A stretch of 62,940 nucleotides of DNA, counting the filler, from Candidatus Woesearchaeota archaeon (lineage in GTDB: Archaea; Nanobdellota; Nanobdellia; Woesearchaeales; BM511): the NCBI GenBank assembly GCA_023266675.1. It is 5 parts of 5 records of this genome, joined end to end, with 100 filler letters (N's around TTAATTAATTAA, not from the genome) between each part and the next. Parts side by side here need not be neighbours in the genome. Positions count along the whole stretch, not along the records: positions 1 to 13,058 come from JAHFPP010000039.1; 4 more parts are not named here. One strand, given 5' to 3'. Numbering within the stretch: the stretch's first letter is position 1; each line of letters opens with the position of its first letter. A program made the translations under genes and the position numbers. This document shows, piece by piece, positions 1 to 13,058 of the stretch. Under the pieces are notes generated by a model that saw only the letters and a list, made by a program, of their open reading frames with translations, was not told where the DNA came from and ran no database searches.

Positions 1-443
1 CTGTGTAGCATTTATTCCAGAATCCTTCCCTCTACATTCAAATTCAATTACCAAGTTGAGTATCTTTAGCATAAGTATCAGTTTTTATCTCATAGGTATA
101 TTCCTGGCCCATATAAGACATTTTAAGGTCATAAGTAATATTTTTACAATGGAAAATTAAAAACAAAAAAATTTAAAAAAAAATTTTTACAGGACACATA
201 GTAGAAGTGCGCAAAGAAAAAGGGGTACCCTATAATTAAAAAGAGAAGAGTCTATGTTTATAGGCGCTTTGATTGGTTGAGAATTTTGAACCAAAAAAAA
301 TGAAAAAAAATCTGCGTGGACCTGGGCGGGTCCTTGAGGGGTCCTAATTTAGGGGGCTTATTAAAGGTGCGAGCCTAAATAGACCCCTTAAATGACCCAC
401 TTAGACCCCTAATTTATAGGCTCTAAGGTTCTATTTAGACCCC

Positions 444-617
444 TTAATCAAGACCCTTACCTTGATGCTTCGGCTTCCTCTTGTAGTCCTTTACAGACTT
501 GTGTACCTTATGTTTAAAATGTGGCACACCGAGTTCAATCTTTGCCTGACGATTAGCTGCACGTTCCATTAGCATAATTTGTAGCTTAGTGATTTTCGTA
601 TTGTTTTTCTTTTTCAT
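444..617 (-). CDS. Small basic phage-type protein (KHKVHKSVKDYKRKPKH motif)
   Basis: ATG at 617 is exactly 13 nt from the minus-strand motif; the track start at 668 reads through the motif. Confidence 0.7.
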   Translation of the reverse strand: MKKKNNTKITKLQIMLMERAANRQAKIELGVPHFKHKVHKSVKDYKRKPKHQGKGLD

Positions 618-671
618 ATTATTATAGGTCGAGTAAAAGAAAAAAAAGAAAGGGGAAATTTTCCCCACTCT

Positions 672-896
672 TTACGAGATTTTCTTTTTTTCTTTGTTCC
701 ATACACCGTATGATTTAGCATAAGGATTACCACCTACATACTTTTCAAATACCTTTACAACCGTACCTGTTGGTAATTCGTTCAATATACATGGATTGGT
801 GCTAAACATATCGTATTCAGTACCTTTGATTTGTTCTTTATTGGCTAATTTCTCGTTTAACTCTTTTTTGCTTTTAGCTTGAATGTAGATTGTCAT
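672..896 (-). CDS. Hypothetical phage protein
   Basis: 74 aa, downstream of minus-strand motif 923-931 and an A/C-rich leader. Confidence 0.75.
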   Translation of the reverse strand: MTIYIQAKSKKELNEKLANKEQIKGTEYDMFSTNPCILNELPTGTVVKVFEKYVGGNPYAKSYGVWNKEKKKIS

Positions 897-1026
897 ATTA
901 GTTTGTTTTGGTTGGTATATTCTTATAGGTCGAGATTTTCTAAAAAAAGAAAAAGTTGTTTAAGCCTAAAGGACTTTCTTTTTTTTCTTTTGTCTGACCT
1001 ATAAAGATATACCAAAAACAAACCAA

Positions 1027-1362
1027 ATGATGAACGTAGGCGAAAAAATCAACATAGAAGAGTTAAAAAAAGGCAGAGATTTAGATTGTGCCGAAATAAT
1101 GAACTTTTTACAGGCTCATAAACAACGTTTTTGGTGTTGGGGCGCACATAAGTTTATCAAAATGACCAATTCAGCACTACGCTTCAATGTAAGCGGTCTA
1201 ATTCATACAGGACACGTTTATATATTTATCAATGGTGCTGACTACTTTGATATATATTTAACGAGTAATCAGGGCACGATTAAGGCAGTTTTTAATGACA
1301 TTGATATTGAAAGTTTGTTTAGTGTAATAGATGAAAATATTGAAATAAAAAGAAGGGGTTAA
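1027..1362 (+). CDS. Hypothetical phage protein
   Basis: 111 aa, follows motif at 996; hairpin plus T-tract after the stop. Confidence 0.8.
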   Translation: MMNVGEKINIEELKKGRDLDCAEIMNFLQAHKQRFWCWGAHKFIKMTNSALRFNVSGLIHTGHVYIFINGADYFDIYLTSNQGTIKAVFNDIDIESLFSVIDENIEIKRRG

Positions 1363-1421
1363 CCTTTCTTTTTTTTCTTTTCTTTGACCTATAATAATAT
1401 ACCAACCAAAACAACCAACCG

Positions 1422-1727
1422 ATGAAAAATTTAGCAGATTTTAAAAAGTTAGCGACAATAGGCTCTAAATGGGAAGCTAAACATCATTTAACTTTTGCAG
1501 GGCGTGATGAAAATGGAAAAGCTATTTATACTACAAAGGATTTAGGGGTTCGTGAGGTGAGCATCAAACAAAGTAATTCAATTGCTTTTAAACAAGTAAA
1601 AACGGACGGCACAATTTCTGATAGTTGGTTGCAATATCCAAAGGCTTCGGACTGTAAATTTACAAATGATTCTATTGAAATTTATGAGGGCGAAACATTG
1701 GTATTAACATATAAACAAGCAAGTTAA
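1422..1727 (+). CDS. Hypothetical phage protein
   Basis: 101 aa between motifs 1386 and 1748. Confidence 0.75.
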   Translation: MKNLADFKKLATIGSKWEAKHHLTFAGRDENGKAIYTTKDLGVREVSIKQSNSIAFKQVKTDGTISDSWLQYPKASDCKFTNDSIEIYEGETLVLTYKQAS

Positions 1728-1781
1728 TTCTTTTTTTTCTTTTGTTTGACCTATAAGAATATAAACCAAAACGATATAGCT

Positions 1782-1964
1782 ATGTTTGACTATCCTAAAA
1801 GCAAATATTATTCATACAGTACAAGAGCAGAAGATTGGGCAAATTGTCAACCGATTAAAAGTCTTTTGTTAAAGCAGCGAAAAGGGAATTTTCTAACTTT
1901 AGAAGAAAAGAAGCGTATTTTAAAAGAAGCTGAAAAGAAACGTATTGAAAATAAAACGAAGTAG
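1782..1964 (+). CDS. Hypothetical phage protein
   Basis: First ATG after motif 1748; stop abuts the next motif. Confidence 0.65.
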   Translation: MFDYPKSKYYSYSTRAEDWANCQPIKSLLLKQRKGNFLTLEEKKRILKEAEKKRIENKTK

Positions 1965-1998
1965 ATTCTTTTTTTTGTTTTCTTTGACCTATAATAAT

Positions 1999-2181
1999 AT
2001 GGAAAACGAGAAATTAAAAGCAAAAATTATAGAGTTATGGCATACAAGCCGTTGCAATAATGTTTCAAGGTATGACCGTATGATATATGTTAGAGATTGG
2101 CTTAAAAAAGAAAGTCCTGAATTGGTAATTGATTTAAGCGCAAAGAAAATATGGTTTGCCATAGAAGATGCTATTAGTTAG
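1999..2181 (+). CDS. Hypothetical phage protein (leaderless class)
   Basis: ATG at +13 from motif 1986. Confidence 0.7.
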   Translation: MENEKLKAKIIELWHTSRCNNVSRYDRMIYVRDWLKKESPELVIDLSAKKIWFAIEDAIS

Positions 2182-2235
2182 ATTCTTTTTTTTCTTTTGT
2201 CTGACCTATAAGAATATATCAAAAACAACCAAACG

Positions 2236-2583
2236 ATGAAAGAGGAATCTGTAATAAATCATTATCTTATTGCTGCTTTATGGACTGCCGAACTTGATGG
2301 TCGTAATGTAGCTGAAATATCAGCTGAATCAATTAAAAAATCAGAAATAGATGTAAACAACTTTGTTAAGGGAGCATTGCCTCTTTTGAAACAATATAAA
2401 ACACCTATGACACCTGCTCAATTGGGACACGATTTTTGGCTTACTCGCAATCACCATGGCGTTGGATTTTGGGATAGGGATTTGGGCGAATTGGGGGATA
2501 AATTGACTGAATTAGCACATACATTTAAAGCGGTGAATGTATTTGGTGAAAATGATAATAAAGATGAAATTATTATTGAATAG
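2236..2583 (+). CDS. Conserved phage-type hypothetical protein (GHDFWLTRNHHGVGFWDR motif)
   Basis: 115 aa after motif 2203; motif-rich globular sequence. Confidence 0.8.
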   Translation: MKEESVINHYLIAALWTAELDGRNVAEISAESIKKSEIDVNNFVKGALPLLKQYKTPMTPAQLGHDFWLTRNHHGVGFWDRDLGELGDKLTELAHTFKAVNVFGENDNKDEIIIE

Positions 2584-2655
2584 TCAGGGGAGTTTCCCCT
2601 TTTCTTTTTTTCTTTTTCTTTGACCTATAATAATATAACCAAAACAAACAACTCT

Positions 2656-2898
2656 ATGAACTCAATATTAATAAAAGCACTTCAAAAATTAATTAAGCCA
2701 TGTCCTTGTTGCGGAGGTAAAGATGTTTATTTTAAAATTATAGATGAAAAAACTCAACAAGATGTTTCAAATAAATTAGATACTTACAAACAAGCTACTT
2801 ACTTAAAAGAGCAAGTTGGATGTTTTACTTGTGGATTAAATATGCAAAAAGCAGAAGGATGTCAGGCAATTAACCAATGGAATAATAGGGTTACTTAA
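2656..2898 (+). CDS. Lar-family restriction alleviation-like Zn-ribbon protein
   Basis: KPCPCCGG...VGCFTCG...AINQWNNR matches the Lar pattern KPCPFCG..CxxCG..A.xxWNxR. Confidence 0.65.
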   Translation: MNSILIKALQKLIKPCPCCGGKDVYFKIIDEKTQQDVSNKLDTYKQATYLKEQVGCFTCGLNMQKAEGCQAINQWNNRVT

Positions 2899-2952
2899 TT
2901 CTTTTTTTCTTTTTCTTTGACCTATAATAATATAACCAAAACAAACAAACTT

Positions 2953-3072
2953 ATGAAAGCCATTCAAAAAATTTACATTCGTGAAGCATTTAAACGAACT
3001 TTAAAATTTATGTCAAAAAGCAAGCAAGCGGAGCGAATGATAATATTTAATAAAACGTATATGAATTATTAA
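2953..3072 (+). CDS. Small hypothetical protein (39 aa)
   Basis: Below the ORF-track cutoff; fills the unit after motif 2919. Confidence 0.5.
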   Translation: MKAIQKIYIREAFKRTLKFMSKSKQAERMIIFNKTYMNY

Positions 3073-3127
3073 ATAAAAAGGGATTAATTTCCCTTTCTTT
3101 TTTTCTTTTTCTTTGACCTATAATAAT

Positions 3128-3200
3128 ATAAGAGAGATGCCTTGATAAGCAGAATCTATCCCCGCTGAAAATGGGTAGGATTAATCCGCACCTACCTTAT
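3128..3200 (+). ncRNA. Putative structured small RNA, copy 1 of 4
   Basis: ORF-less unit after motif 3115; AGAGATGCCTT..AAGCAGAATC..GGATTAATCCGCACCTACCTTATATT, homologous to 8095-8170. Confidence 0.5.
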
Positions 3201-3274
3201 ATTTTGGCTTGGATTTTGCGTTTCTTTTTTTTATTATCTTTGACCTATAATAATATACCAACCAAAACAACCAA

Positions 3275-3418
3275 ATGAAACAGACATTCTTAAAACAGTT
3301 ATCCTCCGTACATTCTAATAATTTGGTTATTGGTGTTGTGATGGAAAAATATAAAATGACTGCTATACAAGTCAGAAGGGCGTTTAATAAAAAAGAGCGT
3401 AGAGAAATAGCAAAATAG
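3275..3418 (+). CDS. Small hypothetical protein (47 aa)
   Basis: Fills the unit between motifs 3242 and 3443. Confidence 0.55.
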   Translation: MKQTFLKQLSSVHSNNLVIGVVMEKYKMTAIQVRRAFNKKERREIAK

Positions 3419-3476
3419 ACGTTTCTTTTTTTTCTTTTCTTTGACCTATAAGGATATAACCAAAACAACCAAACAA

Positions 3477-4052
3477 ATGGAAACAGTAATAAAAAAACAC
3501 ATTACAAAAGTTGAATTGTTGAACTTGTTAAGCGAATTTCGCAAAAACATATCTGCTACAAATGTAGCTTTTGGAAACATAGTTTATTTCGTAGATGAAA
3601 GCGGAGCAAAAACGGTAAACAAGCAAAAAGTTTTACAAAAATTTGTCAGAGTTAATTGTACCATTGGCGCAAAGTATGAAAACCGAATAAACAGAGATTT
3701 AGTTAAACAGGGCGAAGAGGCGAATTTTACCGCTCAAAGTATGTCAGGCAAGGAATATATCAATGACGAGGGAATCGTTGCCATAGACGTTAAAACAAGG
3801 ACAAAACACTATCTTGTTGCTACGGTTGAAAATCATACAATTCCAACGACTGTTTATTTTCACGAGGGCAAACGTATTTCTAAAGAGGACGCAATTAAAA
3901 AAGAGTTGTTTATGCCTTCACATTTTGCACCAAAAATTTCGTCAGGACGTGGCAATATGTCAGAAGATAAAGACTTTCACACTATTAATCCGAATTTAAG
4001 CAATATTATTTCATTAACATTAAACAAAACAAAGTTTATAATTATTGACTAA
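3477..4052 (+). CDS. Hypothetical phage protein (191 aa)
   Basis: ATG after the leader of motif 3443; terminator-like GGGG..CCCC-T tract follows. Confidence 0.8.
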   Translation: METVIKKHITKVELLNLLSEFRKNISATNVAFGNIVYFVDESGAKTVNKQKVLQKFVRVNCTIGAKYENRINRDLVKQGEEANFTAQSMSGKEYINDEGIVAIDVKTRTKHYLVATVENHTIPTTVYFHEGKRISKEDAIKKELFMPSHFAPKISSGRGNMSEDKDFHTINPNLSNIISLTLNKTKFIIID

Positions 4053-4147
4053 AAAAGTTAAGGGGTGAAAAAATCCCCCTTCTTTTTTTTACTTTCCCTG
4101 ACCTATAAAGATATAAGAACCAAAAACACACGCTATGAAAAAAAATT

Positions 4148-4328
4148 GATAATTTGAGTTCGCTCCCTCTTCTTGGTTTATGGCATTGGCAGCCACAACA
4201 GCACCCCCGTTTAACAGCGGGGGCTAAACGCTTCAGTAAATTTTGATGCAGCTCTCCCCAGAGTTTATTGCAGGGGTGGATTAACCCTGACCTTTCGGTG
4301 GTCGATTCAAGTTGCGAACTTTCTATCT
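4148..4328 (-). ncRNA. Putative structured small RNA, copy 2 of 4
   Basis: Starts at +13 of minus-strand motif 4333-4341; 4271-4328 matches 9760-9817 at 57/58 nt; 5' AGUUCGC can pair with 3' GCGAACU (4157-4163); U-tract follows. Confidence 0.55.
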
Positions 4329-4425
4329 ATACTTATAGGTCGGGCAAAGAAAAAAAAAGAAACGCTCCCTATTCTTTTTTTTGTTTTCTTTGACCTATAA
4401 TAATATAACCAAAACAACCAACGCC

Positions 4426-4626
4426 ATGAGCTTATTACAACAAATATTTGAAGAGGGCAGAAAAGCTGAAAATAAGAAAAAAGCAAAGAGTATGACCTTT
4501 TCAAATGAAGGAAAATTTCTTAATGCAAAGATGGTGGTTTATGATGATGCCTTTTTTGAAATTGTTGGTGGCAAATATGATGGTAATTTGGTTCACCGTT
4601 GGGATATTGTAAAACCAAAAAATTGA
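4426..4626 (+). CDS. Hypothetical phage protein
   Basis: ATG after the leader of motif 4392. Confidence 0.7.
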   Translation: MSLLQQIFEEGRKAENKKKAKSMTFSNEGKFLNAKMVVYDDAFFEIVGGKYDGNLVHRWDIVKPKN

Positions 4627-4663
4627 TTCTTTCTTTTTTTTTCTTTCCCTGACCTATAAGGAT

Positions 4664-4870
4664 ATGAGAAAGCAAACAGATACAAATGGAAACAAACTTA
4701 TTTTAGGTAGCGACCTTTCAGATGAACAGAAAGCACTTCTTAAATTCAATGGTATGAAAAATCCTTTGTGGATTAATAATCATTCTTTTTGGTTTAAAGA
4801 TGGCAATCCGTCAACCGAACAAGGGTTTATATATCCAGTTGTTAATTCATTTTCACATTTGCCATATTAA
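4664..4870 (+). CDS. Hypothetical phage protein (leaderless class)
   Basis: ATG at +13 from motif 4651. Confidence 0.7.
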   Translation: MRKQTDTNGNKLILGSDLSDEQKALLKFNGMKNPLWINNHSFWFKDGNPSTEQGFIYPVVNSFSHLPY

Positions 4871-4903
4871 TTCTTTTTTTTAAAATCAACGACCTATAAG
4901 GAT

Positions 4904-5131
4904 ATGAACAGAAAATTATTAGCACTTCGTGCCAAAGTAAATAAACTTATTGATAGCAGCGAGTACAAAAGTGTAAAGCTGTATGGAATTTCTTGTAGCA
5001 GGTCTGACCTGGAGATGGTTATATTTTTTGCAGATATTTTGTTGCGACAAGGCAATATCAATGGTTATTGTATTTATAACAATGATATTAAAAAAATATT
5101 TGCGGAAGCAGGAATCACTATTGAAAGTTAA
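4904..5131 (+). CDS. Hypothetical phage protein (leaderless class)
   Basis: ATG at +13 from motif 4891. Confidence 0.7.
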   Translation: MNRKLLALRAKVNKLIDSSEYKSVKLYGISCSRSDLEMVIFFADILLRQGNINGYCIYNNDIKKIFAEAGITIES

Positions 5132-5188
5132 AATTCTTTTTTTTGTTTTGTTTGACCTATAAGGATATAACCAAAACAACCAATCATA

Positions 5189-5419
5189 ATGACACGCAAA
5201 GAATTTAAAAAATCAGTTTCTCAATTTGCTAAAGAAGTTTTAAAAAAACGTGGCAGTATTTATAGAGATGTAAAAATTAACCTTTCGCTCCCTACAATTT
5301 CATTCGGTGATTTTTTTGTACAAGGCGAATCAGCGGAGCAATTAATAGCAGAAGCACCAAAGGATATAAATTTGCGTACTTGGTTATTATTCTATTTAGA
5401 TGGAGCAGGAGCAATTTAA
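5189..5419 (+). CDS. Hypothetical phage protein
   Basis: Between motifs 5154 and 5445. Confidence 0.7.
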   Translation: MTRKEFKKSVSQFAKEVLKKRGSIYRDVKINLSLPTISFGDFFVQGESAEQLIAEAPKDINLRTWLLFYLDGAGAI

Positions 5420-5477
5420 AATTTTTCTTTTTTTTGTTTTGTTTGACCTATAAGGATATAACCAAAACCACAGAGCC

Positions 5478-5753
5478 ATGAAAACTCAACCGATAAACAG
5501 AGTAGGATTTAAAACATCTTGGATGACAGATGAAGATTCTAATGTAAATATTACAGTAGAGCCAATGCAAAATATTTCAAATGGTTCTGACGAAGTAGCA
5601 TTAACACCTGCACACGTTGAATTGAGAACGAGAATTGCAATGATTGAGGCGGTAATTTCGGGCAAAGGTTTTTCTAAATTTGTAAAAGAGAAAAAAGCTG
5701 AATTTTTGGAAGAATACAAATTATTTGTATCATTGGATGCACAGTTGGGTTAA
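5478..5753 (+). CDS. Hypothetical phage protein
   Basis: Between motifs 5445 and 5774. Confidence 0.7.
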   Translation: MKTQPINRVGFKTSWMTDEDSNVNITVEPMQNISNGSDEVALTPAHVELRTRIAMIEAVISGKGFSKFVKEKKAEFLEEYKLFVSLDAQLG

Positions 5754-5786
5754 TTCTTTTTTTTAAATTATTCGACCTATAAGGAT

Positions 5787-5987
5787 ATGAAAACATTTGA
5801 ATTTATTACATTAAATGCCAAACGAGTTAAAGAAACCAATGGCATTTATAAGGGGTTTGTAAAAACAGAAATCTTTAAACAAGATGGAACGTTAAAGGCA
5901 ATCATACCTGCTGAACAAACTCAACCACGTAAAAGTAAAAAATTCATTACATTAAATTGCTTTAAATTTCGTTTAAATTGGATTTAA
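5787..5987 (+). CDS. Hypothetical phage protein (leaderless class)
   Basis: ATG at +13 from motif 5774. Confidence 0.7.
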   Translation: MKTFEFITLNAKRVKETNGIYKGFVKTEIFKQDGTLKAIIPAEQTQPRKSKKFITLNCFKFRLNWI

Positions 5988-5991
5988 AATT

Positions 5992-6330
5992 ATGGAACAA
6001 AAAATATTAAGCCCGAAAATATCTAATTGGAAAGACCTTGTTGAGCAGTTTGGCTTGAGAACACCACTTGGAAAAAATTATAAAACTGCGGTTGAAATTT
6101 CAAGAGATTTAACTTTTGCAAATGAAAGAATTGACCTCAACGATAAAAGAGAGCAACCACGACCTCAAAAGGATGGAATTATGACTTTTGTAAGTCAGAG
6201 AGAGGATGAAATGACTTGTGTTACAATTGCATACGAGAGAGATAATTTTGATTCAGGGGTTTGTAATTTTGAGTTCGTTGGTATGGAAGGAGAGCGGAGA
6301 GTTTATGATTATTTAGGTACGGCAAAATAA
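5992..6330 (+). CDS. Hypothetical phage protein, second gene of a bicistronic unit
   Basis: Starts 4 nt after the previous stop, has no motif of its own. Confidence 0.7.
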   Translation: MEQKILSPKISNWKDLVEQFGLRTPLGKNYKTAVEISRDLTFANERIDLNDKREQPRPQKDGIMTFVSQREDEMTCVTIAYERDNFDSGVCNFEFVGMEGERRVYDYLGTAK

Positions 6331-6387
6331 TGTTTCTTTTTTTTCTTTTCTTTGACCTATAAGAATATACCAAAACAATCAGAGCAA

Positions 6388-6690
6388 ATGAAAAAAGACA
6401 CAGAAGTAACCGATATGATTTTCAGAGTTGACACTGCAAAAGAGTATAAAGACAACGTGTTTGCATTATTTCCTCACGAGGTTTGCACACGCAAAGGAGA
6501 TGTTACAACTTATCAACACATTGGGCAACATAGTTCGGGAGATTATAAAGCTTGTATTAGTCAATCACGACCTGCCACAGAACAAGAGTATAAAGATTTA
6601 AAAGCCGAATTGGATTCAATAGGCTACAATATAAACATTGTTAAAAAACAAAATTATAAAAAGTATTTAATATCCTACCGTAAAAGATAA
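6388..6690 (+). CDS. Conserved phage-type hypothetical protein (FALFP..YQHIGQHS..PATEQEY..L..EL..IGY)
   Basis: ATG after the leader of motif 6354. Confidence 0.75.
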   Translation: MKKDTEVTDMIFRVDTAKEYKDNVFALFPHEVCTRKGDVTTYQHIGQHSSGDYKACISQSRPATEQEYKDLKAELDSIGYNINIVKKQNYKKYLISYRKR

Positions 6691-6743
6691 TTTTTGGTTT
6701 GGTTTGTTTAAAATGCGGGAGTGGTTGCCCGATTGGATGGATT

Positions 6744-6808
6744 GCAAAGATTGGGATAGCGTCTTTGTTGTTTTAAAGGGGTAAGGATTGGGATAGCGTC
6801 CTTACCCC
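6744..6808 (+). other. Twin hairpins with an identical 11-nt loop TTGGGATAGCG; the second doubles as an intrinsic terminator
   Basis: GCAAAGA-loop-TCTTTGT (6744-6768) and GGGGTAAGGA-loop-TCCTTACCCC (6778-6808), followed by a T-tract. Confidence 0.65.
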
Positions 6809-6861
6809 CTTTCTTTTTTTCTTTTTCTTTGACCTATAATAATATACCAACCAAAACCACA

Positions 6862-7110
6862 ATGACAACTACTGTAACTGCCCATAATGTTCTTGTTAGT
6901 AAAGCCATTCTCAATACAGATTATTTTCAGTTTAAAGAATTATTTCTGAAGGGATGCAGGAATTGCAATAAATTGGTTAAATATAACCATACCAAAGAAA
7001 AACGTTTTATGAAAGAAAATAGGTATGTTTATATTTGCGAATGTGCTGAATGTAAAAATCCGTTATTGCTTGATGGAGTAGATATGTACCTATTGAACGG
7101 AAAAGTATAG
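6862..7110 (+). CDS. Small Zn-ribbon protein (CxxC..CxxC)
   Basis: CRNC and CAEC; after motif 6831. Confidence 0.65.
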   Translation: MTTTVTAHNVLVSKAILNTDYFQFKELFLKGCRNCNKLVKYNHTKEKRFMKENRYVYICECAECKNPLLLDGVDMYLLNGKV

Positions 7111-7144
7111 TTTCTTTTTTTTGTTTTCTTTGACCTATAATATT

Positions 7145-7366
7145 ATGAAAGCAAACGAAATAACATCAATAGGAGTGTTGGTATCACACAAAGGCGGTAA
7201 AAACCTGACACCTATTTTTAAAGGTAGTCAATTCCCTATCTTTGTTTATGTTACAAATAATGAGTTTGACACAGTAAAAGACAATAAAAAACTGATGAAA
7301 AAATTGGTTATTAAAAAAATAAAAGAGAAAGAATTTAAAACTTATTCTGAATGGATAAGGGAGTAG
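7145..7366 (+). CDS. Hypothetical phage protein (leaderless class)
   Basis: ATG at +13 from motif 7132. Confidence 0.7.
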   Translation: MKANEITSIGVLVSHKGGKNLTPIFKGSQFPIFVYVTNNEFDTVKDNKKLMKKLVIKKIKEKEFKTYSEWIRE

Positions 7367-7421
7367 TTTCTTTTTTTTCTTTTGTCTGACCTATAATAAT
7401 ATAACCAAAACAATCGAACTC

Positions 7422-7646
7422 ATGGATAATGCAGAGATAAAGCTCGTACATATTTCACAAATATCAAAAGGTGATACGATTGTTGCCAATGATGGCAAGT
7501 TGACCACAGTATGCACTAACAATATAGAAAGGGGCGGATTTTGTGGAGATACTTTGTTTGGAGATAGTTATCGTTCGGGTACTATACCAGTTCAAAAAGT
7601 TGTGGGATGGATAGGTAAAAATGGCTCAGTTGTTCCGATTAGATAA
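7422..7646 (+). CDS. Hypothetical phage protein
   Basis: After motif 7388; VHISQI..GDT..TLFGDSY pattern. Confidence 0.75.
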   Translation: MDNAEIKLVHISQISKGDTIVANDGKLTTVCTNNIERGGFCGDTLFGDSYRSGTIPVQKVVGWIGKNGSVVPIR

Positions 7647-7701
7647 TTCTTTTTTTCTTTTTCTTTGACCTATAACAATATAAACCAAAACAATCGAACA
7701 A

Positions 7702-7905
7702 ATGGCAAAAAAGAAAAGATACGATGTTCTTTCTCCTGATGGATTTGCAATCGAAAGAGAGAAAGATTATGCAACAAGAGAAGAGGCAATTGCGGCTTTT
7801 ACTGAATGGGCAAAACGATTTGAAAAGCAGGGATATTACAGTTCAAATAATGGACGTATTCCATTGAAAGACCTTGAAGATGAATGTAGTTTAATAGAAG
7901 TATAA
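7702..7905 (+). CDS. Hypothetical phage protein
   Basis: After motif 7667. Confidence 0.75.
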   Translation: MAKKKRYDVLSPDGFAIEREKDYATREEAIAAFTEWAKRFEKQGYYSSNNGRIPLKDLEDECSLIEV

Positions 7906-7922
7906 ATTTAAAAACAAAAACG

Positions 7923-8042
7923 ATGGGAGATATTAAAATAATGCAAAGTGATAAAGAAATACGAATAAGTGTTTTCCCGATGAAATATCCGAGCGGAAAA
8001 GATATGCGGAGATTAAGAAGGGCGGCAAATCGAAATAGTTAA
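7923..8042 (+). CDS. Small hypothetical protein (39 aa)
   Basis: A-rich leader; second ORF of the unit, then hairpin and T-tract. Confidence 0.45.
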   Translation: MGDIKIMQSDKEIRISVFPMKYPSGKDMRRLRRAANRNS

Positions 8043-8094
8043 ATGAGAGGGATTTTTCCCTTTCTTTTTTTTGTTTTCTCTGACCTATAAGTAT

Positions 8095-8170
8095 ATCAAG
8101 AGAGATGCCTTACAAAGCAGAATCGACCTCCGAGAGGGCAGGGTTAATCCACTCCTACCTTATATTCTGC
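8095..8170 (+). ncRNA. Putative structured small RNA, copy 3 of 4
   Basis: ORF-less unit after motif 8082; GAATCGACC-TCCGAGAGGG-CAGGGTTAATCCACTCCT core shared with the minus-strand copies. Confidence 0.55.
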
Positions 8171-8307
8171 TGGTCTTTCTTTTTTTTATTTTCTTTGACC
8201 TATAATATTGATGCCTTATATTTTGGTCGGTTTTTTGTTTAGGCTTGGATAAGTTTCTTTTTTTTCTTTTCTTTGACCTATAATAATATAACCAAAACAA
8301 ACGAACT

Positions 8308-8457
8308 ATGTTATTTGAAACTCCATTAAGTAAGACAAAAGTTAGAAATGGTATTTATGCCTATAAATATGCTAACGGCTGTATAAATATTAACGGGCAA
8401 AAATACTTTTTTTATTCCATAAAAAATGCAATAAAATTATGGAGAAGTAAAAACTAA
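8308..8457 (+). CDS. Small hypothetical protein (49 aa)
   Basis: Fills the unit after motif 8275. Confidence 0.55.
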   Translation: MLFETPLSKTKVRNGIYAYKYANGCININGQKYFFYSIKNAIKLWRSKN

Positions 8458-8545
8458 TTTTCTTTTCAGCTTAAAGTACTTTCTTTTTTTTCTTTTCTTT
8501 GACCTATAATAATATAAACAAACAAACTAAAAACCCAAAACGAAA

Positions 8546-9496
8546 ATGGCACACAACTTAGAAAATGTAAATGGCAAAACAAGTTTTGCAAGTACTGAAA
8601 AAGCATGGCACAATTTAGGACAAATTGTGGAAGGTGCAATGACTTCTGAAGAAGCAATCAAATTGGCAAGTTTGGACTACGAAGTAGCTTTAAAACCTTG
8701 TACTTTTGATGTTGAAATGGGCAAAAGTATTGTAGTACCAAACAATTTTGTTTCTTACCGTAAAGATACAAATATGCCTTTGGGAGTAGTGGGAAACCGT
8801 TACACAATCGTACAAAACACAGAAGCATTTGGATTTTTTGATTCAATTGTTGGGGGCAAAATCGCAATGTTTGAAACGGCAGGAGTTTTGGGGCAAGGTG
8901 AAAGAATTTTTGTAAGTGCAAAAATGCCTGATGTTATCAAAATTGATGGAACTGATGACATCACAGAGGTTTACGTTCTTTTAACAAGTTCACACGATGG
9001 TTCAGGTTCAATAATTGCAGCGGTAACACCTGTAAGAGTTGTATGCCAAAATACCTTAAATGCAGCCCTTAAAAACACTATTTCACGAGTTGCAATACGT
9101 CATACCACAAGTGCATCAAAACGTCTTGAAGATGCTCACAAATTGCTTGGAATTTCTCACAAGTTTGTAACTGAAACAAATGAATTGTTTAACTCACTTG
9201 CAAAAAAATCCATCACAGATGCACGTGTTAAGGAACTTGTTGAAAACTTGTTCAAAAGTGAAAAAGATGATTCAACCAGAATTACGAACATTAGAGAGGC
9301 TGTTATGGCTTCGTACTTTGACGGAATCGGACAAGATAAAATAATTGGTACGGCTTGGGGTGCTTACAACGGAATCACTCACTACTTAGACCACGTTCAA
9401 AAATACAGAACAGGAGATGTTAAATTTGACTCCCTGATGAACGGTGCAAGTTCAAAGATAGCAGAGAGTGCTTTTCAACAATTAATCACTCTATAA
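8546..9496 (+). CDS. DUF932 / TIGR03299-type phage/plasmid protein
   Basis: AWHNLG, LGVVGNRYTIVQNTEAFGFFD, FETAGVL, SSHDGSGS, TPVRVVCQNTL, GTAWGAYNGIT motifs. Confidence 0.9.
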   Translation: MAHNLENVNGKTSFASTEKAWHNLGQIVEGAMTSEEAIKLASLDYEVALKPCTFDVEMGKSIVVPNNFVSYRKDTNMPLGVVGNRYTIVQNTEAFGFFDSIVGGKIAMFETAGVLGQGERIFVSAKMPDVIKIDGTDDITEVYVLLTSSHDGSGSIIAAVTPVRVVCQNTLNAALKNTISRVAIRHTTSASKRLEDAHKLLGISHKFVTETNELFNSLAKKSITDARVKELVENLFKSEKDDSTRITNIREAVMASYFDGIGQDKIIGTAWGAYNGITHYLDHVQKYRTGDVKFDSLMNGASSKIAESAFQQLITL

Positions 9497-9704
9497 GCAT
9501 AAAAAGGGGCAAAAACAGGGGAGGGATTTTAAATATCTCCCTTTCTTTTTTTTGTTTTGCTTGACCTATAATCATATAACAAATAAAAACTAAAAAGATG
9601 AATCACTTAAATTCAGAAGCTCAATTGTATGATTTTCATTCGGCTGAATTATTAGCCAATGCGGGAAAGTAAAAAAACAATAAATGCTGAAGCATGGCAG
9701 GTGG

Positions 9705-9817
9705 GACAAAAGTTCTGCCTGCTTTTTTATTTGCTCTCCCTATTGAGCAGAGTATAAGGCAGGAGTGGATTAACCCTGACCTTTCGGTGGTCGATTCAAG
9801 TTGCGAACTTTCTATCT
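9705..9817 (-). ncRNA. Putative structured small RNA, copy 4 of 4 (3' end uncertain)
   Basis: Starts at +13 of minus-strand motif 9822-9830; near-identical 58 nt to 4271-4328. Confidence 0.55.
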
Positions 9818-9938
9818 GATATTATAGGTCGAATAAAATAAAAAAAAGAAACGTATCTTTATCTCCTTTAGGCTCAAAGTACTTTCTTTTTTTTACTCTC
9901 CCTGACCTATAATAATATAACCAAAACAAAACAACCAA

Positions 9939-10124
9939 ATGAACTACGAGCCACGCAAAATATCTTCAACAGAAAATAGTGAATATTTAGCATTGTTTCA
10001 CAAGGCTGCTAATAGAGTTGTTCTTGATGAAGCAGAGCGAACAAGATTTAATAATTTGCTTACATTAAAACGAGCAAGACAAAGATTTGATATTCAATTT
10101 AACAATATGGTTAAATATAACTAA
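9939..10124 (+). CDS. Hypothetical phage protein
   Basis: After motif 9904. Confidence 0.65.
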   Translation: MNYEPRKISSTENSEYLALFHKAANRVVLDEAERTRFNNLLTLKRARQRFDIQFNNMVKYN

Positions 10125-10174
10125 GCAAATGCTCAAAGCAGTTCTTTTTTTTCTTTTCTTTGACCTATAATAAT

Positions 10175-10345
10175 ATGAAAGCAAAACCTGAAATAATAAA
10201 AATTAAAAGAGCGTGTCCTTGTTGTAATAAAAAAGATAATGTAAGAAAGGATTTTGATTTCCCAAAGACAGTGAGGTGTTGTGATAATTGCGGAGCTGAT
10301 TTTATGACTAATGGTGAAATAATATTTAATCCAAAAGTTAATTAA
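10175..10345 (+). CDS. Small Zn-ribbon protein (leaderless class)
   Basis: CPCC..CDNCG; ATG at +13 from motif 10162. Confidence 0.7.
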   Translation: MKAKPEIIKIKRACPCCNKKDNVRKDFDFPKTVRCCDNCGADFMTNGEIIFNPKVN

Positions 10346-10398
10346 TTCTTTTTTTTATTTTCTTTGACCTATAACAATATAACCAACAAAAACAACCA

Positions 10399-10719
10399 AT
10401 GAAAAATTTAGAGGAAAAATTAAAGCAGATTGATAAAATATTGGTTGCTCCATATCGTAAAGGTTTGAACTATGTTAAATTGATTGACCTTAGAGCAAAA
10501 GTATTAGCAGCTCTTCCTAAAAAAGTTCATGCTGATTTAACAGAGGCAGAGAAAATTGAATTGAAAAAAATCACCACAGAGATATTCGGCAATTCTACGA
10601 TGTTTATAATCTTTGATGATGAACAAGCAAACAATCCAAACTTGCAGCGTTGGGAGGATTTAATGACAAAACAAGCAAATTTTCAACAATATATGCTTCG
10701 TTGTATGGCTCAAAATTGA
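10399..10719 (+). CDS. Hypothetical phage protein
   Basis: After motif 10366. Confidence 0.7.
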   Translation: MKNLEEKLKQIDKILVAPYRKGLNYVKLIDLRAKVLAALPKKVHADLTEAEKIELKKITTEIFGNSTMFIIFDDEQANNPNLQRWEDLMTKQANFQQYMLRCMAQN

Positions 10720-10764
10720 GTAACTATTCAATTCTTTTTTTTAAAAACCTTGACCTATAATAAT

Positions 10765-10983
10765 ATGAGAAAGTATAAAGTAGAACATAGAGCAGTAATT
10801 AACACAGCAGGCGGTTTAATGTTTCGCAATGATGATTTGTATATTTCCCCAATATTTGAAAGAGGAGATTCGGGTGAATTGGCACGTAAACAAACAAGGG
10901 GCGAAGCATTGACAAGAGAAGAAAAAAATATTGTATCGTTATATGCTGAAAAAAAACGTAAAGAAAATTTAATGAAAAAATAG
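10765..10983 (+). CDS. Hypothetical phage protein (leaderless class)
   Basis: ATG at +13 from motif 10752. Confidence 0.7.
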   Translation: MRKYKVEHRAVINTAGGLMFRNDDLYISPIFERGDSGELARKQTRGEALTREEKNIVSLYAEKKRKENLMKK

Positions 10984-11017
10984 TTTCTTTTTTTCAATCT
11001 CCCTGACCTATAATAAT

Positions 11018-11416
11018 ATGAAACAGACAAAGCCAAAATTCAGCACACTTGTAAAAAATCTTTTAGCAATTGGTGGCACACGAGTTGTTGGCGACTTTGA
11101 TGAAGACTTGGCTAAAATTTTAAGCAGAGGCGAAGTGTTCTCCCCAAAGAAAGTTAAGAGTGTAAAAATGATACCTTGTAGATGCCATGCGAACGCAGGA
11201 GTATTTTGGGATAATTATTCATATAAAAACGGTTTTGATAACATTCAAATTGTAACTGGTTTTTGTTTGTCAGAAGATGGTTTATGGCGTTCGCATTCTT
11301 TTTTGTATCAGCCAATAGATAATGTAATAATTGAAACAACTGTAAAGAGAAAAATCTATTTTGGATTTGCTTTGAACTTAGAGGAATCTAAAAGTCACCA
11401 CGAAAATAATCATTAA
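11018..11416 (+). CDS. Putative papain/transglutaminase-like fold protein (Cys-His)
   Basis: RCHANA..IVTGF..GLWRSHSF..IIETT pattern; ATG at +13 from motif 11005. Confidence 0.55.
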   Translation: MKQTKPKFSTLVKNLLAIGGTRVVGDFDEDLAKILSRGEVFSPKKVKSVKMIPCRCHANAGVFWDNYSYKNGFDNIQIVTGFCLSEDGLWRSHSFLYQPIDNVIIETTVKRKIYFGFALNLEESKSHHENNH

Positions 11417-11421
11417 ATTCT

Positions 11422-11622
11422 ATGAATACAATCACATTTTCAAGACAAGCATTAAGCGACTACAAAAACAAGTCTTTAGATGCTATTGTAAACGGAAACA
11501 CCACTTTTGTACATAAAGGGGCGCTTATTAAAGTAAGTGATGCTGAACGGCTCATTGATAAGTTTACACCACACTTTTTGGATAAAAATAAGGATGAAGT
11601 AACAATACTGTATAATTTTTAA
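11422..11622 (+). CDS. Hypothetical phage protein, second gene of the unit
   Basis: 5 nt after the previous stop. Confidence 0.65.
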   Translation: MNTITFSRQALSDYKNKSLDAIVNGNTTFVHKGALIKVSDAERLIDKFTPHFLDKNKDEVTILYNF

Positions 11623-11713
11623 TCTTTCTTTTTTCAATCTCCCTGACCTATAATTTCAGAAACAAAGTTTCTGTCATAATAATATAAATCAAACAACTTA
11701 AAACTTTAAAATT

Positions 11714-11839
11714 ATGAAATCAATCTTCATCTTCGGAATTTTATCAATTGGATTATTAACGTCAGCACCAATTCTCCCTCGTAAAATTCGGGTTCCAAAA
11801 GAAACAGTTCACATTTTCAAAAAAGGATTCAGAGGTTAA
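11714..11839 (+). CDS. Small protein with hydrophobic N-terminus (41 aa)
   Basis: MKSIFIFGILSIGLLTSA; after interrupted motif 11645. Confidence 0.45.
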   Translation: MKSIFIFGILSIGLLTSAPILPRKIRVPKETVHIFKKGFRG

Positions 11840-11968
11840 AACTTTGGGGCGGAAAAATCAAGTCGGCATAAAACGAGAAGTCATACTCACGTAAGTCCCC
11901 AGGAATTACCCGCTCTTCTTTTTTTTATTTTCTTTGACCTATAATAATATAACTAAAACAAACGAGCC

Positions 11969-12235
11969 ATGCCTGACACAGTAGAAAAAGTATTAACTCC
12001 ACAAGAGCGCAAAGAAAAGTTTATAACTGATTTACAAGCAAAACTTGAAAAACGTTTTGAAGATGGTAAAACACTTGTAGCGGGATTTGAAACGTGTTCA
12101 AGAGCGCCAGCGTTTGGTTGGAGTGTTGAAGAGTATATGTATATGCCAATTGTGGCTTCACGTTTGAGAGAAAAAGGATTCACAGTATCAAGCAAAGTGA
12201 ATTGGGAGGTTACAGATTGGAATATTGCATTGTAG
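11969..12235 (+). CDS. Hypothetical phage protein
   Basis: After motif 11936. Confidence 0.7.
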   Translation: MPDTVEKVLTPQERKEKFITDLQAKLEKRFEDGKTLVAGFETCSRAPAFGWSVEEYMYMPIVASRLREKGFTVSSKVNWEVTDWNIAL

Positions 12236-12269
12236 TTTCTTTTTTTTAAATTCCTTGACCTATAACAAT

Positions 12270-12542
12270 ATGAAAAAGATAATCGTATTATTCGGAAATT
12301 TTACTTTTCATCATTTTGATGAAATTGAATTAAAATTATTTAAACAGAATACTGAACAGAAGGCGCTTATACATTCATTGGATAAAGTGTTTGAAGTTGA
12401 CACAGAGGCAGAAGTTGATGAACTTATTAATCAACTTGAAAATGTTTATTATGCGTGGATTGTACCAAGCGAATTTAAAGGGGAAATTGCAATTGAAGAG
12501 CCAAACAAAACACTTGACGAATTGATTGCAGAAAAAAAATAA
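12270..12542 (+). CDS. Acidic hypothetical phage protein (leaderless class)
   Basis: ATG at +13 from motif 12257. Confidence 0.7.
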   Translation: MKKIIVLFGNFTFHHFDEIELKLFKQNTEQKALIHSLDKVFEVDTEAEVDELINQLENVYYAWIVPSEFKGEIAIEEPNKTLDELIAEKK

Positions 12543-12579
12543 GTGTTTCTTTTTTTTAAATTCCTTGACCTATAATAAT

Positions 12580-12996
12580 ATGAAACAGACAAAAGTAATA
12601 AAGTTGATGATAATTAATAATTTCATTGACCATTGGACAAGCAATGAGGCTGAACGTGAACGAATGAAAAACACTGCAGCTGTTTATGTTACAGAAGACC
12701 ATGTTGATGAAATTGCACAATCGAATCTTTTAGATTCAATTGTTGTGAATAAGGATGCAGCAAAAGAGAGAGTTGAAAAAACGTATAATGAAGTTCTTGC
12801 AAAAATTAAGTCTATGGCTAAAAATGGACTTTCTACATTTAGAATTGACTTGCTTGTGGCTGATTCAATTGAACTTGAAGAAATTGTAAATAAACTTGAA
12901 AGTGAGCATCAAATAATGATTGGGTACAAAGGTAAAATGTATAATGGTTATGAGAGGGATTTAAAGAGTTGGACAATCAGATTTTTCACAAATTAA
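12580..12996 (+). CDS. Hypothetical phage protein (leaderless class)
   Basis: ATG at +13 from motif 12567. Confidence 0.7.
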   Translation: MKQTKVIKLMIINNFIDHWTSNEAERERMKNTAAVYVTEDHVDEIAQSNLLDSIVVNKDAAKERVEKTYNEVLAKIKSMAKNGLSTFRIDLLVADSIELEEIVNKLESEHQIMIGYKGKMYNGYERDLKSWTIRFFTN

Positions 12997-13058
12997 TAAC
13001 TTTCTTTTTTTTATTTTGTTTGACCTATAATAAAAAACAAACAGATGAACAAGCAAGG

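Follow-up and report, generated by a model that had tools for sequence, protein, structure and literature searches.

The first 13,058 nt (JAHFPP010000039.1) of the window, by which we mean the whole 62,940-nt stretch analysed from assembly GCA_023266675.1 of a Candidatus Woesearchaeota archaeon, hold an array of small genes in which the motif TTCTTTTTTTT-N9-GACCTATAAnnAT heads 39 units; each time, a T run or hairpin belonging to the unit before abuts it. This number of units, together with the ATG that stands directly after the motif in 11 of them, points to a promoter, and the ATG in these 11 units follows too closely to allow the usual spacing from -10 to +1. A consensus scan for sigma-70-like promoters returned 28 sites against 28.0 ± 5.0 expected. 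Four of the units carry a structured RNA that starts directly after the motif; the copies are single units, 1-5 kb apart, and lie around two longer protein genes. The features of the locus are as follows.

3097..3127, plus strand: putative array promoter of RNA copy 1 (T run and GACCTATAATAAT)
3128..3232, plus strand: RNA copy 1; model core 3130-3206, 76.3 bits, E 1.3e-21
3138-3151, 3152-3157 and 3161-3175, plus strand: hairpin 1, linker GAAUCU and hairpin 2 of copy 1
3176-3194, plus strand: 3' module of copy 1, UAGG-AUUAAUCCGCA-CCUA
3' end of copy 1, plus strand: tail and distal GAUUUUGC, then T run 3225-3232
3477..4052, plus strand: gene for a conserved 191-aa protein (P0001), between copy 1 (upstream, same strand) and copy 3 (convergent, downstream)
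4100..4149, plus strand: putative array promoter and 4-codon ORF, directed antisense into copy 3
4138..4328, minus strand: RNA copy 3, long form of ~190 nt, convergent to the 191-aa gene; model core 4259-4329, 73.5 bits
4341-4329, minus strand: equivalent motif core of copy 3
8082-8094, plus strand: equivalent motif core of copy 2
8095..8187, plus strand: RNA copy 2; model core 8098-8169, 77.0 bits
~8197-8262, plus strand: fifth, core-deleted copy, read directly and compared with copy 1
8546..9496, plus strand: DUF932 gene, between copy 2 (upstream, with two short units between) and copy 4 (convergent, downstream)
9671..9817, minus strand: RNA copy 4, ~147 nt, convergent to DUF932; model core 9748-9818, 77.9 bits
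9830-9818, minus strand: equivalent motif core of copy 4

An earlier note on this DNA had reported four motif-headed units with a common core, and all four lie where it placed them. The element GAATC-N16/21-GGNTTAATCC is common to them, and a search of the window with the pattern GAATC-N{10,30}-GGNTTAATCC gave four matches (3152-3187 and 8120-8150 on the plus strand, 4278-4308 and 9767-9797 on the minus strand) against 0.02 expected, a number reached in none of 100 shuffled sequences. A covariance model of the family (R1), with which the window was searched at E<=1, recovered those four copies only. The ends given for copy 1 are the probable ones, judging by the motif and the T run. In copy 2, hairpin 2 reads UCC-GAGA-GGG, and GCAGAAU can pair with AUUCUGC immediately before the T run. 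The closure that the note had described for copy 3, AGUUCGC with GCGAACU, is present ahead of the U run at 4145-4138, and copy 4 ends after a two-way terminator hairpin (9696-9723) and a U run. The fifth copy consists of the motif followed by GAUGCCUU fused straight to AUAUUUUGG, as left by a deletion between two CCUU words of a copy-1-like unit. Contigs C10, C68 and C74, from the same bin, carry three further copies.

The RNA is composed of a purine-rich 5' end, two hairpins that vary in sequence and are conserved in structure, and a nearly invariant 3' module, GCAGG-GUUAAUCCRCN-CCUGC followed by the tail UUAUAUUUU, of about 20 nt with an 11-nt loop. The hairpin changes noticed beforehand among the window copies (AAGUU-CGC-AACUU against UGC.UU...AAGCA, and ACC-GAAA-GGU against UCC-GAGA-GGG) are real, and the covariance model, homologue search and covariation analysis that had been called for extend them to 42 homologues, across which the two hairpins covary strongly. 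Pairing is kept in 88.5% of cells against 70.2% in shuffled alignments, and the covariation score of the two hairpins is 0.350 against 0.104 after shuffling (0/500 shuffles reaching it) and at most 0.060 when the partners are slid. Both sides change in five of five pairs of hairpin 1 and in three of four of hairpin 2, G-U pairs are confined to the modelled strand, and a structure-blind MAFFT alignment gives the same covariation picture; RNAalifold on that alignment recovers hairpin 2 only. The loop of hairpin 2 may be GNRA, UUCG or longer, and a strain variant in the DNA run retains the stem. Single-sequence folds of the four copies are not significant on their own (z -2.65, -1.39, -0.81 and -1.47). 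The stem of the invariant module barely varies, its sole variable pair being C-A in 9 of the 42 members, and is weakly supported. Alternative pairings also exist (GGR-UUAA-UCC, and ACC with GGU), and one pair, C-G in 31 members and U-A in 3, suggests a possible pseudoknot.

The units show no credible ORF, as had been noted earlier. An ATG in hairpin 1 opens 45 codons in copy 2, meets a stop after two codons in copy 1 and is absent from copies 3 and 4, so that no ORF is conserved across the four; indels among the members are not multiples of three, and the members have no ORF in common. Nor does the RNA belong to a catalogued family: Rfam 15 gave no match at the gathering threshold in the whole window, and nothing on the RNA over eight homologous loci. 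With the cut-off relaxed to E<=10, positions 2900-10000 gave 15 weak matches, only one of them over a copy, and this candidate, RF01449 on the opposite strand of copy 4, scored 15.3 bits against a gathering score of 80. ARAGORN found no tRNA or tmRNA gene in the window. An intrinsic terminator alone was also considered; apart from a distinct hairpin at 9696-9723, the terminator scan made no call on the four copies, and the units contain more than a terminator needs, since the two upstream hairpins covary and the 11-nt loop is invariant.

At E<=0.001 the covariance model finds 42 distinct members, from phage-like contigs: metagenome contigs, MAG contigs and viral contigs of 88-189 kb. There are six to seven copies in this bin, eight in another MAG and two in each of four IMG/VR viral contigs. 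The 13-kb contig and three further contigs of the bin are bacteriophage DNA binned into an archaeal MAG, and the family belongs to a clade of large uncultivated phages, probably phages of Bacteroidota. At least four different promoter cores precede the homologues (GACCTATAA, CCATATAAA, CCCTATAA and GTTATACAAGTGT), and the RNA start is the same after each. Most members have a U run immediately after the tail, and the unit that comes next has its own promoter. The one metatranscriptome, the sole RNA run listed for the source sample, yielded only T-rich scraps. The earlier reading of a structured RNA carried as cargo, here in a phage gene array, is supported by the covariation and the lack of an Rfam match; what it had missed is the conserved siting beside the 191-aa protein and DUF932.

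Upstream of the longest conserved array genes, at 85-411 nt and on the same strand, there are RNA copies. The gene that follows encodes the 191-aa protein at six loci, DUF932 at three by tblastn and two more by Pfam or reading, a GP88-like protein at three and a ParB-like protein at one, and convergent copies stand downstream of the 191-aa gene (three loci) and of DUF932. This association is inflated, because only conserved neighbours are recognisable. For a gene of such an array, the 191-aa family shows unusual conservation, with 96 clusters at 43-82% identity, and its predicted model is confident (pLDDT 89.6); fold searches gave weak Sm/Hfq/WYL-like barrel matches at Z 4-5.7, which is noise level. 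The protein occurs in two of the five RNA-bearing records searched, all of them incomplete. Searches of Pfam, PADLOC and PDB sequences gave neither it nor DUF932 a link to a toxin or an RNA-binding fold. Among the small genes of the array there is a weak Lar-like restriction-alleviation match (24.7 bits, below the Pfam cut-off of 28.6).

We propose that the four units are paralogous genes of an uncatalogued structured phage sRNA, with their own promoters and U tracts, that acts in trans through a conserved partner, a reading to which we give an even chance. Each copy would be read from the standard promoter of the array, starting at the A after GACCTATAAnnAT, and would be ended by its own U tract, yielding RNAs of ~75-105 nt from copies 1 and 2 and of ~150-190 nt from copies 3 and 4. 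The RNA, made abundant by its many gene copies, would act in trans; the partner that holds its invariant loop and stem would be either a protein or a conserved RNA, from phage or host, and the two hairpins would serve as a scaffold. The early expression envisaged in the earlier note may follow from the promoter motif that the copies share.

A role in cis would also agree with the siting just upstream of a few long genes. The RNA could be a regulatory cassette for those genes, either an element of the put antiterminator type, whose transcription alters the behaviour of RNA polymerase at the many T-run terminators, or an insulator or strong terminator, with the convergent copies at the far end walling the gene off. 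Both the position of the sense copies ahead of the longest conserved genes and the convergent copies behind the 191-aa gene and DUF932 speak for this, as does an element that begins at +1, like put RNAs. However, a full promoter stands between the RNA and every downstream gene, most copies finish in a U run, and the convergent copies, each with a terminator of its own, are not directed at any gene. Moreover, many copies have none of the four gene families within 900 nt, though many such loci are too short to judge, and the inflation of the association weakens it further. We regard a cis-acting cassette as unlikely. It is rather improbable that the RNA is a partner of the neighbouring 191-aa family and/or DUF932, whether as cofactor, as operator or as a neutraliser of antitoxin type. 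The arrangement, with promoter, RNA and leaky terminator ahead of the protein gene, does recall type III toxin-antitoxin pairs, the window and a phage whose promoter code differs show the same bracketing of the 191-aa gene and DUF932, and the 191-aa family has the conservation, the confident model and the (noise-level) barrel matches already given; yet four unrelated protein families follow the RNA, neither protein shows up in a 189-kb RNA-bearing viral contig of 74% completeness, the units are not repeated in tandem, and the database searches offer no toxin or RNA-binding fold.

The earlier note had favoured a decoy against an RNA-dependent host defence, mimicking a CRISPR repeat, a type III antitoxin or a retron ncRNA. 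A multi-copy RNA behind a strong array promoter, with an invariant module suggestive of a conserved target and with DUF932 and the weak Lar-like match among its neighbours, would suit such a function. The genome contigs of one genome each of 185,579 species were scanned with CAGGGTTAATCCNCNCCTNC, that is, for the near-exact module only, and 27 loci were found: nine, from four records, belong to phage-like arrays whose copies, spaced 0.7-4.4 kb, occupy both strands, and the remainder are single matches, with no spaced array of the near-exact module. A CRISPR-repeat mimic is thus unlikely for the invariant module, which that scan found only in phage-like contigs and as scattered single matches. 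Type III antitoxins are tandem repeats, whereas TRF in 1-13058 finds only T-rich repeats of period <=16 and the RNA units are single. No Rfam CRISPR-DR, retron or antitoxin family matches, and we hold the decoy to be very doubtful. Highly improbable, finally, is an element acting at the DNA level, the RNA being incidental: either GGATTAATCC would be a palindrome bound as an operator by a dimeric regulator, or the whole unit would be a mobile repeat or a site of recombination. In copy 1 and two relatives GGATTAATCC forms a perfect 10-bp palindrome, genes are flanked by inverted copies, and contigs from the DNA run join array units at repeats in other orders. Against it, most members have an imperfect palindrome and the GGUAAUCC subtypes have lost it, the conservation is asymmetric in its extent, the hairpins covary, G-U pairs being limited to one strand, and the unit is always at +1 of a promoter, in one orientation.

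A bolder version of the trans-acting sRNA can be formulated, which we regard as quite unlikely: a new class of phage regulatory RNA, folded into a compact pseudoknot (ACC-GGU across hairpin 2, stacked on CAG/CUG) and placed as pairs around a few conserved genes for host takeover, among them those for DUF932 and the 191-aa protein, with the sense copy of each pair upstream and the convergent one downstream. Early in the infection of Bacteroidota, a phylum not known to have Hfq or ProQ, the invariant loop would seize a conserved piece of host machinery, for example the ribosome, RNA polymerase or a defence that targets RNA.

Few phage-encoded small RNAs are known to have comparative support, and those of large uncultivated phages are almost unexplored. 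The family now has 42 members, clear covariation, a 20-nt near-invariant module and a repeatable position beside DUF932, an uncharacterised protein that is very widespread among phages and plasmids. It offers a concrete experimental handle on both the RNA and DUF932 through binding, read-through and defence-panel experiments, and its covariance model is ready for an Rfam entry. The work also shows that an archaeal MAG contains bacteriophage DNA, in the 13-kb contig and three more contigs of the bin.

Several known systems resemble this family in part. ToxI consists of short repeats in tandem, which its toxin processes; the order of promoter, structured RNA, terminator and protein gene is similar, whereas the RNA units here are single and the neighbouring proteins lack a toxin signature. 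The put antiterminator RNAs of phage HK022, of ~70 nt with two stem-loops, start at early promoters, at or near +1, and are present more than once per genome; the genes that they serve follow with no new promoter between. The present RNA shares the length, the two stem-loops, the start at +1 and the multiple copies; it differs in the intervening promoter, in sequence, in having no Rfam likeness and in its convergent terminated copies, which misfit such a role. RNA anti-CRISPRs (Racrs) are described as solitary repeat units in phages, defined by their likeness to host CRISPR repeats (PMC10651486). Like them, this is a small non-coding RNA, singly encoded in a viral genome, that could titrate a host protein; unlike them, its module was found in no spaced array in the scan of species genomes and matches no Rfam CRISPR-DR. 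Aca regulators bind structured motifs of RNA within the 5' UTRs of acr-aca operons (PMC13551039), and the likeness lies in a folded RNA heading phage genes of anti-defence type, with a palindrome-like core readable as DNA or RNA. Those motifs, as that account presents them, sit inside the mRNA leader of the controlled operon, whereas the RNA described here has its own putative promoter and U tract, occurs in convergent copies too, and has no HTH regulator gene seen alongside. A parallel in layout is provided by the promoter-early stem-loops (PeSLs) of the T4-type phages RB49 and phi1, reported as cassettes between the small genes of hyperplastic regions (PMC2839356). Here too a hyperplastic array of small, mostly unknown genes has each gene flanked by a repeated cassette of putative terminator and strong promoter, so that repeated candidate promoters and terminators lie between the small ORFs of a plastic region. 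The array promoter differs from theirs in not being sigma-70-like by consensus scan (28 sites against 28.0 expected), and, while PeSLs are junction cassettes in that account, the cargo unit here encodes a folded RNA of at least 70 nt with an invariant module.

Very probably, the RNA units described here belong to a family of structured non-coding RNA genes in a clade of large uncultivated phages. The four units that the earlier note had picked out by eye proved to be real. The pattern GAATC-N{10,30}-GGNTTAATCC matches exactly four times, twice per strand, against 0.02 matches expected; all four matches lie on the MAG contig C3, with none elsewhere in the MAG, and each copy is immediately preceded by the array motif, a promoter-like motif that heads the units of this contig. 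The copies have a core of about 75 nt in common, and are placed as follows relative to the two conserved genes considered below.

3130-3206, plus strand: RNA copy 1
3477-4052, plus strand: gene of the 191-aa protein
4259-4329, minus strand: RNA copy 3
8098-8169, plus strand: RNA copy 2
8546-9496, plus strand: DUF932 gene
9748-9818, minus strand: RNA copy 4

The units were also said to lack a credible reading frame, and indeed no ORF is common to the four copies: the ATG within hairpin 1 starts a frame of 45 codons in copy 2 but of only 2 in copy 1, and copies 3 and 4 do not have it. ARAGORN called no tRNA or tmRNA in the window and Rfam gave no match there at gathering thresholds, in keeping with the remark that no Rfam family was recognised, while a relaxed Rfam scan returned chance-level matches only, one of them on copy 4 in the wrong strand (15.3 bits against a gathering score of 80). 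The RNA is outside all known families tested, and a literature search found no prior description of such a motif. In each window copy (4/4) a long-range match of 7-8 bp precedes the U run. At about 8197-8262 lies a fifth unit, which resembles copy 1 and retains a complete promoter but has lost its core; the deletion runs from one CCUU word to another, and recombination between the two is its apparent cause. The one metatranscriptome from a sample containing this DNA yielded only T-rich scraps and is uninformative on transcription.

One of the checks proposed in that note, a covariance model, was carried through and homologues were found in metagenome, MAG and large viral contigs. Scanning metagenome contigs for the promoter motif yielded at least 144 stretches, many of them arrays, with at least 13 RNA homologues within the stretches listed. 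A scan for the invariant module of the RNA identified four large viral contigs (88-189 kb, estimated 36-74% complete). Run on 185,579 species represented by one genome each, it gave 27 loci, of which 9, located in four MAG records, are genuine members; 18 single matches without family features were set aside. The covariance model R1, built from 28 sequences, recovers, at E<=1, no window sequence other than the four copies and, at E<=0.001, 42 distinct members overall. Regular-expression loci L149, L152, L153, L162 and L164 were dropped as chance matches, since they have neither the promoter nor the two hairpins, and the sequence around them is unrelated and mostly rich in G+C; the case for exclusion is weakest for L152 (27.6 bits). 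Among the members, at least four different promoter cores (GACCTATAA, CCATATAAA, CCCTATAA and GTTATACAAGTGT) are found ahead of the RNA, whose start offset from the core is constant; conservation of the RNA therefore does not depend on which promoter drives it. At three loci (L047, L100 and L144) a conserved AU-rich hairpin, UUUAGAAUCAUUCUAAAU, lies downstream of the RNA tail, after long forms. On the 189-kb viral contig L144, at about 3110-3330 of the minus strand, two tandem promoter-headed units without an ORF have a different sequence in common, beginning UGGUGCCUAUUACUUUCG, and may represent a second small-RNA family.

The compensatory-looking changes reported in the hairpins were borne out by the larger set of sequences. 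In the 42-sequence alignment, which was fitted to the model and therefore favours the structure, 88.5% of cells pair versus 70.2% in shuffles, and the covariation score is 0.350 versus 0.104 +/- 0.011 (reached by 0/500 shuffles; at most 0.060 when partners are slid). A structure-blind MAFFT alignment of 28 sequences gives 84.7% versus 73.5% for pairing and 0.266 versus 0.096 for covariation. Two-sided changes affect 5/5 pairs of hairpin 1, whose forms include UGC/GCA, UAC/GUA, UGG/CCA, UGU/ACA, CAC/GUG and AAG/CUU, and 3/4 pairs of hairpin 2, whose loop alternates among GNRA, UUCG and longer sequences. A strain variant in a DNA run has the hairpin 2 loop altered and the stem kept; at window 8129-8134 the variant contig swaps the copy-2 loop, turns a U-G pair into C-G and matches the hairpin of the homologous locus L027. 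The 3' module, GCAGG-GUUAAUCCRCN-CCUGC, is almost invariant and its stem is for that reason poorly tested, its single variable pair being C-G in 29 members, U-A in 2, U-G in 2 and unpaired in 9. A pseudoknot may form, judging by the sequence, between ACC just 5' of hairpin 2 and GGU just 3' of CAG; its middle pair is C-G in 31 sequences and U-A in 3 and is never broken, and the U-A form of these three may have arisen just once. Single-sequence folds of the copies are unremarkable, and RNAalifold recovered hairpin 2 only. Two further pairings were rejected: as a family feature, a closing helix that would join the tail to the 5' end or to the linker (66.7% and 68.9% of cells paired, few of the changes being on both sides), and pairing of the loop GGUUA with mRNA leaders (UAACC), a match of only 4-5 nt that is not kept in a related array. 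A likeness of the module to the 3' end of 16S rRNA, the 530 loop or the tRNA T arm, judged by eye, would be a lead at most; the MAG contains no 16S.

Regarding its origin, the window consists of five contigs joined by N runs and taken from a MAG of 1.22 Mb in 83 contigs, bases 1-13058 being contig C3. The MAG itself is archaeal, since other window contigs encode MCM (716 bits) and an archaellum FlaI-type ATPase. C3 is read as bacteriophage DNA binned into it, on the grounds that its array motif also fills MAG contigs C10, C68 and C74 (L190-L192), that in tetranucleotide composition C3 and C74 alone stand out from the bin, that C10 codes for a sigma-70-family protein (regions 2 and 4) and ParB-like proteins, that the RNA family occurs in 0/40 searched relatives of the MAG, and that the closest named DUF932 homologues (62% identity) belong to a Bacteroidia MAG and to Aurantibacillus (Bacteroidota). 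The four contigs, about 56 kb in total, look like mis-binned phage DNA, and the host was probably a member of the Bacteroidota. Megablast of window 3000-10000 gave no match among cultured phages.

C3 is an array of 39 units, each opening with TTCTTTTTTTT-N9-GACCTATAAnnAT; the window has 41 occurrences of this motif where 2.5 would be expected. An ATG directly follows the motif (+1) in 11/39 units, and most others have an A+C-rich leader of about 20 nt without a Shine-Dalgarno sequence before the ORF. In the presumed promoter, a T run (about -33 to -23) precedes a conserved core that spans -13 to -1. A related phage has the same layout with CCATATAAAGAT as its core (loci compared: L156, L157, L167 and L171), and each phage lineage therefore seems to have its own promoter word. 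In IMG/VR the promoter pattern was found at 1 locus and the strict RNA pattern at 0. Contigs of DNA run X1 carry the array units of window 1-13058 in other orders, joined at promoter repeats, one joint leading to another type-A RNA copy; this reordering reflects either modular shuffling among co-occurring phages or assembly ambiguity. Near the contig start (window 300-470) the word TAGACCCCT(T/A)AA is repeated about four times upstream of two leftward array units (TRF period 13 at 376-403), and may be an iteron-like or terminal feature. At 11645-11713 the array promoter is followed by a hairpin, AGAAACAAAGUUUCU, a 56-nt leader and a 41-aa ORF with a hydrophobic start, a unit unlike every other in the array.

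The position of the RNA was analysed by tblastn of four array proteins against all loci, and copies were found in the same orientation as four conserved genes and 85-411 nt upstream of them.

Conserved genes downstream of RNA copies, by tblastn unless stated
191-aa protein: 6 loci (window, L027, L054, L083, L158, L186)
DUF932: 3 loci (window, L148, L174), plus L194 and L202 by Pfam or reading
GP88-family protein: 3 loci (L069, L120, L191)
ParB-like protein: 1 locus (L192)

Convergent copies follow the 191-aa gene at 3 loci and DUF932 in the window and L051, and the arrangement recurs in one IMG/VR viral contig. The order of sense copy, 191-aa gene and convergent copy and, further on, sense copy, DUF932 and convergent copy is identical in the window and in a 54-kb contig with a different promoter core. 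The remaining copies have none of the four genes within 900 nt, many of these loci being too short to judge. The association is real but overstated, because only conserved neighbours are recognisable. The 191-aa family, with P0001 as its window member, comprises 96 clusters of 43-82% identity, has invariant GRG and NFT motifs and is conserved far beyond the level of its array neighbours. No relative of it turned up in Pfam, PHROG or the PDB sequences; PADLOC gave one match (E 0.0038) and IMG/VR only 2 weak partial loci. The predicted structure of the protein is confident (pLDDT 89.6), and the model appears to be without a clear known fold: Foldseek gave no match at E<=0.001, the best VIA-align Z (5.7) is below the tool's stated noise level, and the ESM Atlas returned nothing. 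DUF932 has no PDB sequence match, and the papers found to mention it do so in no title or abstract.

As to function, we are evenly divided in our belief that this is a stand-alone RNA that would act in trans, its invariant loop and stem being held by a conserved partner. Four features favour this reading: a separate promoter and U tract for every copy, the several copies that a genome carries, convergent copies that are terminated with no gene ahead of them, and a 20-nt module that stays invariant beside variable scaffold hairpins. The placement of copies before long genes would suit a cis-acting role, as antiterminator or insulator, which we consider doubtful given these same features of the convergent and self-terminated copies. 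A specific partnership with the 191-aa protein or DUF932, which would account for the recurrent gene order, is quite improbable.

The suggestion that the RNA is a defence decoy is a remote possibility and found no support: the near-exact module occurs in no spaced array across 185,579 species represented by one genome each, the units do not form tandem repeats, and no retron, CRISPR or antitoxin RNA family of Rfam matches the RNA in the window or in eight homologous loci. A purely DNA-level role is unlikely because G-U pairs occur on one strand and the units keep a fixed orientation behind their promoters. In its organisation, the array housing this putative trans-acting RNA resembles the PeSL cassettes of T4-type phages (PMC2839356) and differs from them in that its promoter is not sigma-70-like.
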